Source of the DNA: a virus
IMG/VR virus record: IMGVR_UViG_3300002053_000035
DNA: 34,834 bases
Strand: one strand, 5' to 3'
The translations under genes and the position numbers were made by a program. Shown here in pieces: positions 32,583-33,213 of this stretch (position 1 is the stretch's first letter; the number at the start of each line of letters is the position of its first letter). Below the pieces are notes generated by a model. It searched no databases. It was not told where the DNA came from and saw only the letters and a program-made list of their open reading frames with translations.

Positions 32583-32743
32583 TGATTTGGAATAGCTTTT
32601 TAAAGCAAGTAGAAGTAGATGGTACTGTATGGCAATGCTATAATAACAAATGGTTTAAAAAACATGATGTTATTGTAGTATGGAATTATTGTCACGGTTA
32701 TTACTACTTGGAAAACGGAATAACCATACAAGAGGATTGGTAA
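32582..32743 (+). CDS. 53-aa protein MIWNSFLKQVEVDGTVWQCYNNKWFKKHDVIVVWNYCHGYYYLENGITIQEDW (not in the ORF track).
   Basis: TAATG-coupled on both sides. SD GGAGA 7 nt upstream. Confidence 0.35.
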   Translation: MIWNSFLKQVEVDGTVWQCYNNKWFKKHDVIVVWNYCHGYYYLENGITIQEDW

Positions 32744-33213
32744 TGAAAATTAGAAGAGAAGATGCATTATATACAGCAAGATCATTATTGGAAGTACTTT
32801 GTCCTTATCTCTTCCAGGCTAAGATCTGTGGCTCAATTAGAAGAAGAGAAAAAATGGTAGGAGATATTGACCTAGTAGTAATTCCAACTGATCTTGAAAA
32901 GATTAAATCTGTTATCAGAACTATTGATATGAATTATACCGGACAGGATAAAGTCTTGTCATTCCATGCTCCAACTGGAATTAAAGTTCAAATTTATGTT
33001 ACTACTCCAGAATCATGGGGAGCAACAGTCTTCTATGCCACTGGACCTGCTGGTAAGAATATAGGCTATAGAACCAGAGCAAAGAAGATGGGAATGAAAC
33101 TTAACCGATGGGGATTGTTTGATAGATCAAGCAATGTTATGATTGCTGGTAAAAAAGAATCTGATATGTTTGCTGCATTAGACAAGCCATTTAAACCAGC
33201 AAGGGAGAGATAG
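32743..33213 (+). CDS. Minimal DNA polymerase X (Pol-beta-like nucleotidyltransferase, about 156 aa).
   Basis: KICGSIRRREKMVGDIDLVVIP matches the Pol X NTase motif (GS.RR....D.DLL). The C-terminal FYATGPAGKNIGYRTRAKKMGMKLNRWGLF matches Pol X (FHFTGP...KKNYKLNQYGLF). Start set at the internal ATG at 32743, which has SD GAGGA. Confidence 0.75.
   Translation: MKIRREDALYTARSLLEVLCPYLFQAKICGSIRRREKMVGDIDLVVIPTDLEKIKSVIRTIDMNYTGQDKVLSFHAPTGIKVQIYVTTPESWGATVFYATGPAGKNIGYRTRAKKMGMKLNRWGLFDRSSNVMIAGKKESDMFAALDKPFKPARER

Follow-up and report, generated by a model that had tools for sequence, protein, structure and literature searches.

A phage-borne 156-amino-acid protein of the DNA polymerase X lineage, carrying Gln at the aligned position of the third catalytic Asp and belonging to a subfamily associated with DNA ligase genes

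The stretch of viral DNA analysed here (IMG/VR virus record IMGVR_UViG_3300002053_000035; 34,834 nucleotides, in the following the window) comes from a phage region devoted to replication and nucleotide metabolism and carries, at 32743..33213 on the plus strand, a gene that encodes 156 amino acids followed by a TAG stop. By sequence and by structural modelling, the product is a stand-alone member of the DNA polymerase X (Pol X) lineage that consists of a palm and a C-terminal subdomain (the 'thumb' in Pfam naming) only, and in which a Gln occupies the aligned position of the third catalytic Asp. The original prediction had read this gene as a minimal Pol X and, hence, as a gap-filling repair polymerase; the two peptide motifs on which it was based are both found in the translation of 32743-33213 (+).

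The gene lies among small, tightly packed genes on the plus strand (32322-34424) and is translated from ATG 32743, inside a tightly packed operon with overlapping stop and start codons. A mechanical open reading frame (ORF) begins at ATG 32680 and gives 177 amino acids (32680-33213, +), overlapping an upstream 53-amino-acid ORF in a different frame; the 21-codon N-terminal extension that it adds (MELLSRLLLLGKRNNHTRGLV; 32680..32742, +) is part of the mechanical ORF only and is rejected here. The start at ATG 32743, already proposed in the original prediction, is backed by five independent lines of evidence. A Shine-Dalgarno (SD) sequence, GAGGA, lies at 32732..32736 (+), 6 nt before this ATG, and the duplex with the anti-SD sequence has a calculated dG of -7.9 kcal/mol at ATG 32743 versus +0.3 at ATG 32680 (the median over 30 long genes of the window is -6.45, and -6 is reached by 4.9% of background positions). 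The homologue in the closest relative, L001 (P0002, 81% identical), starts MKVKR... in register with MKIRR... of the window protein, and the L001 DNA located 5' of the Pol X gene is the 3' end of a different gene and unrelated to the upstream sequence of the window. The N-termini of all 27 first-collected family members lie within a few residues of the 32743 start and none has the extension, six public assemblies of this phage have the 156-amino-acid product among their gene calls, and the codon-usage score of the 21 codons is -0.14 per codon in their own frame and +0.03 in the frame of the 53-amino-acid ORF. In the AlphaFold model the protein is ordered from residue 3, the first ten residues having a predicted local distance difference test score (pLDDT) of 97. 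A start at ATG 32680 is ruled out by the lack of an SD sequence, by the unconserved upstream DNA in L001 and by the N-termini of the family.

Assignment to family X draws on searches at the level of sequence as well as of predicted structure. With phmmer against the PDB, the protein matches residues 164-311 of Thermus thermophilus PolX (ttPolX) at E=6.4e-18 and residues 36-163 of African swine fever virus (ASFV) Pol X at E=3e-9, the latter match reaching E=1e-13 with the family profile. In Pfam, the Pol beta thumb PF14791 is matched at E=3.5e-11 and 43.2 bits (cutoff 25), and the palm PF14792, at 22.7 bits (E=1.2e-4), stays slightly under its cutoff of 25 and covers residues 41-75 of the 177-amino-acid ORF only; other nucleotidyltransferase families in Pfam give E>0.1, and no Pfam domain besides the Pol X palm and thumb was found in the protein. 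An AlphaFold model built with 27 homologues has a pLDDT of 94.4 and a predicted template modelling score of 0.88 and is structured from residue 3 to about residue 150. The top Foldseek matches of this model in the PDB are all Pol X, with ttPolX at template modelling (TM) scores of 0.83-0.85 followed by Pol lambda and Pol beta, and among predicted viral structures it matches giant-virus Pol X and a few phage proteins of 252-265 amino acids. The nucleotidyltransferase fold, on which the original prediction depended, is accordingly present by AlphaFold and Foldseek as well as by sequence. The protein starts at the position of ttPolX residue about 157-164, has no 8-kDa deoxyribose phosphate lyase domain and no helix-hairpin-helix (HhH) fingers, both of which Pol beta, Pol lambda and bacterial PolX possess, gives no PHP match in the Pfam scan and stops 3 residues past the thumb. 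It also stands as proposed as a stand-alone palm and thumb protein of family X, with its 156 amino acids falling below the 174 of ASFV Pol X. In PHROGs no family was found at E<0.1 for this protein or for its small neighbours, with the exception of a weak match to phrog_22624 by the 86-amino-acid ORF considered below. The statement that Pol X is rare in phages holds for isolates, 10 of 50,697 isolate phage records having a match, and does not hold for IMG/VR, in which relatives are encoded on 119 and 79 viral stretches returned by two pattern scans.

G30-S31-I32-R33-R34 (32830..32844, +) make up the GSxRR motif, which binds the nucleotide (triphosphate) in the Pol beta-like nucleotidyltransferase fold and is invariant in 107 of 107 relatives. 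S31 and R34 align to the triphosphate contacts S39 and R42 of ASFV Pol X (PMC5330486), so that both contacts are kept. D41 and D43 in D41-I42-D43 (32863..32871, +; part of GDIDLV) correspond to the first two metal-binding carboxylates, i.e. D190/D192 in Pol beta, D49/D51 in ASFV Pol X and D198/D200 in ttPolX, and G30, S31, D41 and D43 of the GS...DxD motif vary little or not at all among relatives. Gln83, encoded by CAA at 32989..32991 (+), stands where Pol beta (D256), ttPolX (D243) and ASFV Pol X (D100) have the third catalytic Asp. Gln83 (IKVQIY) shares its column with ttPolX D243 (LQVDLRV) and ASFV D100 (YQLDLF), and this placement agrees in pairwise hidden Markov model (HMM), family and family-profile-to-PDB alignments; in the AlphaFold model Gln83 lies on a predicted strand (residues 81-86), in agreement with strand 5 of the fold. 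Of the catalytic Asp triad that the original prediction required, two members are found and the third is replaced, and the description of the protein as a plain gap-filling repair polymerase is not supported as it was put. In the thumb, alignment places the subfamily signature at T100-R110 (TGPAGKNIGYR; 33040..33072, +), within which N106 and R110 would be the counterparts of Pol beta N279 and R283, respectively, and R110 also that of ASFV R127.

Gln83 is a selected state, neither an error nor a sign of decay. A sequencing error is ruled out given that an Asp codon is two base changes away, that seven assemblies are identical across the region (1,825 nt) and that L001 has CAG at this position, synonymous with CAA of the window. 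Similarly, a pseudogene is rejected because the ratio of nonsynonymous to synonymous substitution rates (dN/dS) between the window and L001 is 0.10 for the Pol X gene, at a dS of about 1.1 and similar to that of neighbouring genes, which shows that the gene is under purifying selection. In a first sample of the family (27 database proteins and 80 IMG/VR loci), the third site was D in 100, E in 3, Q in 3 and N in 1. The window protein and the two relatives closest to it were then combined into a profile, which gave 8,184 matches at E<=1e-3 among 1.84 billion representative proteins; the alignment of the best 150 together with the window protein and P0002 comprises 151 sequences. Among these nearest relatives the triad is DDD in 87, DDN in 41, DDE in 17, DDQ in 5 and DDH in 1; that is, the third site is Asn, Gln or His in 47 of 151, and D41 and D43 are kept in 151 of 151.

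Proteins of the amide type mostly have 145-200 amino acids and follow the consensus AGSIRR..VGDID.VV ... VN ... WGA ... TGP..YNIGYR..AK..G.KLNQYGLF ... RGK, with which the window protein agrees and in which the thumb motif is the part most similar to ASFV Pol X. No column in this subfamily is richer in Asp or Glu than in the Asp-type proteins, as would be seen for a compensating acidic residue. On a rough neighbour-joining tree the amide state changes 14 times, compared with about 40 times when labels are shuffled, and the amide types are strongly clustered in at least several clades; their monophyly is not borne out on this tree. Judged by these alignments, the window protein belongs to a coherent, uncharacterised and mostly phage-borne subfamily with an amide at the third site. 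Degenerate bacterial PolXs show a wide range of triad substitutions (PMC9226535). In the phage subfamily DxD and the nucleotide contacts are kept and the third site is nearly always an amide, and the site therefore seems to have been retuned rather than abandoned, which argues for a site that may still bind metal and nucleotide. In many of the closest relatives (P0037, P0047, P0048, P0069, P0088 and others) the mini Pol X module is fused into proteins of 500-1,300 amino acids, where it is N-terminal, in the middle or C-terminal.

The amide-type subfamily is statistically associated with DNA ligase genes. In an unbiased Pfam census of the larger neighbouring genes, ATP-dependent ligase is the commonest family at Asn-type loci (6 members; NAD-dependent ligase, 2), while Asp-type loci have portal, capsid, terminase, integrase and methylase genes and ligase is not in the top 25 families. 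Ligase genes were also counted with an iterated ligase profile in fetched sequence of +-6 kb around non-redundant phage loci, using crude gene calling. Over both IMG/VR scans, a ligase lies within 6 kb at 10 of 13 amide-type and 7 of 94 carboxylate-type loci (Fisher p=1.3e-7). In the second scan only, which used a 9-sequence subset of the 42-sequence amide-type alignment, added L094-L172 and covers mostly large phage contigs, the corresponding counts are 9 of 12 and 5 of 30 (p=6e-4). In L001-L090, phmmer with three ligase seeds matched the ORFs of the seeds themselves and one LigA-like ORF (in L090), and no others. At individual loci, the DDN gene of P0003 overlaps a gene for a 305-amino-acid ligase by 4 nt, a 424-amino-acid ligase is encoded 1 kb from P0079 (DDQ), and in Escherichia coli phage IME392 a 252-amino-acid DDD Pol X is directly followed by a ligase.

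For the phage under study itself, a longer contig (L005) encodes at 8413-9015 a stand-alone ATP-dependent DNA ligase adenylation domain of 200 amino acids (PF01068, E=1.8e-10, 41 bits, cutoff 26); a match to an OB domain was not found in this ligase-like protein. Its motif I reads KYNGSR, with Asn in place of the usual Asp (KxDG), and it is far shorter than the ligases of 305-647 amino acids encoded beside other Pol X-like genes. A more degenerate Pol X-like protein is encoded by Vibrio phage 1.031.O (MG592415.1; L090 3593-4390): it has 265 amino acids, is annotated as 'DNA polymerase family X lyase domain protein' and by alignment has the triad G-D-N, because of which it is probably inactive as a polymerase; a LigA-like ORF lies 3 kb downstream.

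Among known systems, the 156-amino-acid protein is, as far as alignments and architecture tell, most like ASFV Pol X (O174L, 174 amino acids; PDB 1JAJ, 5HRB), from which it departs in one defining catalytic feature. Both consist of a palm and a C-terminal subdomain without 8-kDa and HhH parts, the GSxRR(E)EKM..D.D motif is nearly identical (GSLRREEKMLNDVD in ASFV and GSIRRREKMVGDID in the window), the thumb motif TGP...R.R....KLNQYGLF is common to both, and ASFV, like the phage of the window, encodes its own ligase. ASFV Pol X, however, has a complete triad (D49/D51/D100) where the window protein carries Gln in place of D100, and it is the longer of the two by 18 residues. Error-prone gap filling has been proven for ASFV Pol X (PMC5330486) and is at most putative for the window protein. 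The best match in both sequence and structure, at about 31% identity, is the palm and thumb part of ttPolX (POLXc, about 164-315; PDB 3AU2, 3B0X, 3AUO), which differs in being embedded in a protein of 575 amino acids that also has 8-kDa, fingers and PHP exonuclease domains and the canonical triad D198/D200/D243.

Replacement of at least one carboxylate of the triad is shared with the noncanonical prokaryotic PolXs, including Deinococcus radiodurans PolX with the triad AEE (Prostova et al. 2022, PMC9226535). According to that study, the triad is altered in 27.5% of prokaryotic PolXs, which shows that variants of this kind persist in nature. They differ from the window protein in keeping a PHP exonuclease domain that supplies activity, while the window protein has no second domain. 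Also, these PolXs have highly degenerate triads and dNTP pockets, 302 variants being described in which Lys, Arg, Ala and Val also occur (PMC9226535), whereas the phage amide subfamily has a strict DxD and Asn or Gln at the third site. Phaeocystis globosa virus PolX is a polymerase-lyase-ligase fusion (PMC5537341), a functional and physical coupling of a viral Pol X to a ligase module that parallels the gene-neighbourhood link described here; this fusion, encoded by a giant eukaryotic virus, has a complete Pol beta-like core, in contrast to the separate genes, minimal core and altered triad of the phage. Finally, the Asp-type mini Pol X proteins (about 150-170 amino acids; P0012, L008-L087) have the same two-subdomain architecture and size at 30-38% identity and are set apart by their DDD triad, their LIRTGS..HNI thumb motif and their non-ligase neighbours. 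Genes of this type are common in small phage contigs of IMG/VR, where they lie near portal, major capsid, terminase, integrase and DNA methylase genes, outside replication modules.

Combining the conservation data with the gene neighbourhoods, we suggest that the 156-amino-acid protein is a ligase-linked, active-site-modified mini Pol X that acts on gaps or nicks, and we give this reading a probability of roughly 0.5. In this model, the protein would bind Mg-dNTP and gapped or nicked DNA and would cooperate with the DNA ligase of its phage to seal gaps and nicks in phage DNA. Any addition of nucleotides would be slow and limited to one or a few, given that the protein lacks the residue by which canonical Pol X enzymes activate the primer 3'-OH; that the protein retains such a residual, slow, short-patch nucleotidyl transfer is, as part of the model, a matter on which we see the odds as about even or slightly better. 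Several observations weigh against the model. Without the third carboxylate, two-metal catalysis should be severely impaired. Asp256 of Pol beta is the proposed proton acceptor (general base) for the primer 3'-OH, and the D256E enzyme is about three orders of magnitude less active (PMC5499815). The altered-triad PolXs that have been tested show no polymerase activity and act via their PHP exonuclease domain (PMC9226535). The 5'-phosphate pocket of ASFV Pol X, R125/T166/R168 (PMC5330486), aligns to G108/P149/K151 in the window protein, of which only K151 is conservative. On the side of the ligase, the ligase-like gene in L005 lies 5.6 kb downstream of the Pol X-like gene, past the end of the window, and no ligase is encoded within 6 kb of P0036 (DDN), whose contig measures 119 kb. 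In addition, the loci in the ligase counts share ancestry and are not independent samples, and the association could partly reflect genome type in that large lytic phages carry ligases more often.

An ordinary and efficient gap-filling Pol X would have to coordinate the catalytic metal through the amide oxygen of Gln83 in place of Asp. DNA polymerases of the A and B families work with two carboxylates, and such an enzyme would agree with the fold, DxD, GSxRR and the equivalents of N279 and R283 as well as with the ligase encoded by the same phage. We nevertheless consider it unlikely: Asp is found at the third site in 100 of 107 and Glu in 3 of 107 relatives of the first set, and, because Gln83 replaces this Asp and both the roughly 10^3-fold loss in Pol beta D256E (PMC5499815) and the polymerase-dead altered-triad PolXs (PMC9226535) speak for lost activity, plain gap-filling cannot be assumed. 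A more serious contender, though still one that we regard as possible rather than probable, is a pseudo-polymerase without catalytic activity, whose role is limited to the binding of DNA gaps, nicks or ends and which might, for example, position or recruit a ligase or shield breaks from host nucleases. The missing third carboxylate and the ligase linkage of the amide types would both be explained in this way, as would the more degenerate protein of Vibrio phage 1.031.O with its LigA-like gene 3 kb away. Also, Asp-to-Asn changes at polymerase metal sites generally keep substrate binding and abolish chemistry. On the other hand, D41 and D43 are strictly kept at only 30-40% identity, S31, R34, N106 and R110 are well conserved, and the third site is confined to Asn and Gln without drift. 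A pure DNA-binding scaffold is disfavoured because it would need no such conservation of catalytic and nucleotide-contacting residues.

Least probable in our estimate is a nucleotidyltransferase with a job other than polymerisation, i.e. nucleotidylation of protein or RNA, terminal transfer or a nucleotide-consuming counter-defence. The Pol beta-like fold does serve many transfer reactions, and the neighbours of the gene are small proteins without assigned function in what looks like an early region. However, the Pol X-specific thumb is matched at 43 bits, the top structural matches are all DNA polymerases X while other nucleotidyltransferase families stay at E>0.1, and no HEPN-like or similar partner gene was identified nearby. 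Returning to the modified, ligase-linked mini Pol X, we propose much more tentatively that the amide-type mini Pol X proteins (about 145-175 amino acids) as a whole may be an unrecognised class of phage repair proteins, either polymerases with two Asp and an amide or dNTP-dependent sensors of gaps and nicks that feed a co-encoded ligase.

Directly upstream of the Pol X-like gene lies the 53-amino-acid ORF (32582..32743, +), an ORFan whose ATG overlaps the stop of the preceding gene and whose TAA overlaps the ATG of the Pol X gene. The original prediction was right about both TAATG stop/start overlaps (32580-32584 and 32741-32745) and about the SD of this ORF, a GGAG at 32570..32573 (+) that lies 8 nt before ATG 32582 (dG -6.4); the GAGGA of the Pol X gene lies within the ORF. 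By these signals the ORF is probably a real, lineage-specific small gene, and the TAATG junctions are compatible with translational coupling between it and the Pol X gene. Alternatively, 32583-32740 could be an untranslated spacer that is open by chance, which we think rather unlikely. In line with a spacer, the ORF is absent from the closest relative, L001, has no homologue besides itself among 5.8 billion proteins and gives a single-sequence AlphaFold model that is all-beta, uninformative and has a pLDDT of only 61.6; no significant match was found in Pfam or PHROGs. Contigs L002-L007 add no within-population variation for the ORF, being 100% identical to the window over 1,825 nt. Against a spacer, the ORF fills the space between the two genes exactly, has an SD and an exact TAATG at both ends and figures among the gene calls of six independent public assemblies. 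Only 0.5% of shuffled versions of the segment leave this frame open, and 3.9% of off-frame windows of matching length inside long genes are open. Its codon-usage score is +0.15 per codon versus about -0.6 in the two other frames, a value reached by 0 of 296 off-frame windows, yet one that falls in the lowest 7% of true in-frame windows.

The gene on the upstream side of this ORF encodes 72 amino acids (MKVWGTSQYF...; 32364..32582, +). The mechanical ORF from 32322 has 86 amino acids (32322-32582, +), and the true start is probably ATG 32364: the SD dG is -6.4 at this ATG versus -2.9 at 32322, the L001 homologue starts equivalently, and 72 amino acids are called in 2 of 3 Joint Genome Institute (JGI) contigs that carry this gene. 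On the other side, 3 nt past the Pol X stop, a gene for 125 amino acids (33217..33594, +) has 92% amino acid identity between the window and L001 and follows the Pol X block in L001 too. A further ORF with a GTG start and 99 amino acids (33582-33881, +) more likely has 96 amino acids from ATG 33591, given an SD dG of -8.4 at the ATG versus -5.1 at the GTG and public gene calls of 96 amino acids. Between window 32057-33594 and L001 805-2144 the order of genes is shuffled: in the window it is transmembrane (TM) protein, 72-aa gene, 53-aa ORF, Pol X and 125-aa gene, and in L001 it is TM protein, Pol X, 74-aa gene and 125-aa gene, the homologue of the 72-aa gene lying downstream of Pol X. The sequence ATGAAAGT begins the L001 Pol X gene, the L001 74-aa gene and the window 72-aa gene, and these common starts suggest that the shuffle may have arisen by a microhomology-mediated swap.

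Elsewhere in the window are genes for a DnaB-like helicase, a second helicase, a CCA-adding enzyme, a thymidylate kinase, a clamp loader and HU. The CCA-adding tRNA nucleotidyltransferase is encoded at 6265-7683 (-) and matches phrog_2244 at E=2e-79. The operon with the Pol X-like gene is headed by a gene for 486 amino acids (30604-32064, +) whose product has Cys-rich stretches and matches phrog_2319, of unknown function, at E=1e-83. Unusual for a phage replication region is a vault-protein-like gene: the 848-amino-acid product of 14572-17118 (-) matches the shoulder of the major vault protein (PF11978, E=4e-29), a vault repeat (PF17795, E=2.5e-8) and SPFH/Band 7 (PF01145, E=9e-7) and has no PHROG match. 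A megablast of window 20000-34834 against the 50,697 phage records gave no match, and because of this there is no annotation to be taken from a close isolate.

In our search of the literature no paper was found on phage mini Pol X proteins or on a D-D-N/Q class, and reviews of phage polymerases and of the nucleotidyltransferase fold give viral family X as ASFV and giant viruses only (PMC8775771, PMC11646218). The data presented here point to a large, unstudied pool of phage homologues of about 145-170 amino acids and, within it, to a coherent subgroup including the gene described here in which the third metal ligand has become an amide, the rest is kept and the gene preferentially lies beside DNA ligases. 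ASFV Pol X, with its 174 amino acids, counts as the minimal DNA polymerase and is widely used in mechanistic studies, in mirror-image work and in engineering. If catalysis with two Asp and an amide were true, the amide-type proteins would be the smallest DNA polymerases known, with a non-canonical metal site, and the three-carboxylate rule for the Pol beta fold would be challenged. If they do not polymerise, they would represent a natural 'substrate-trap' polymerase fold that was recruited as an accessory to repair or ligation; as sensors, they would hand substrates to a co-encoded and sometimes equally miniaturised DNA ligase. In either case, the label 'DNA polymerase X' on such phage ORFs is no proof of polymerase activity.

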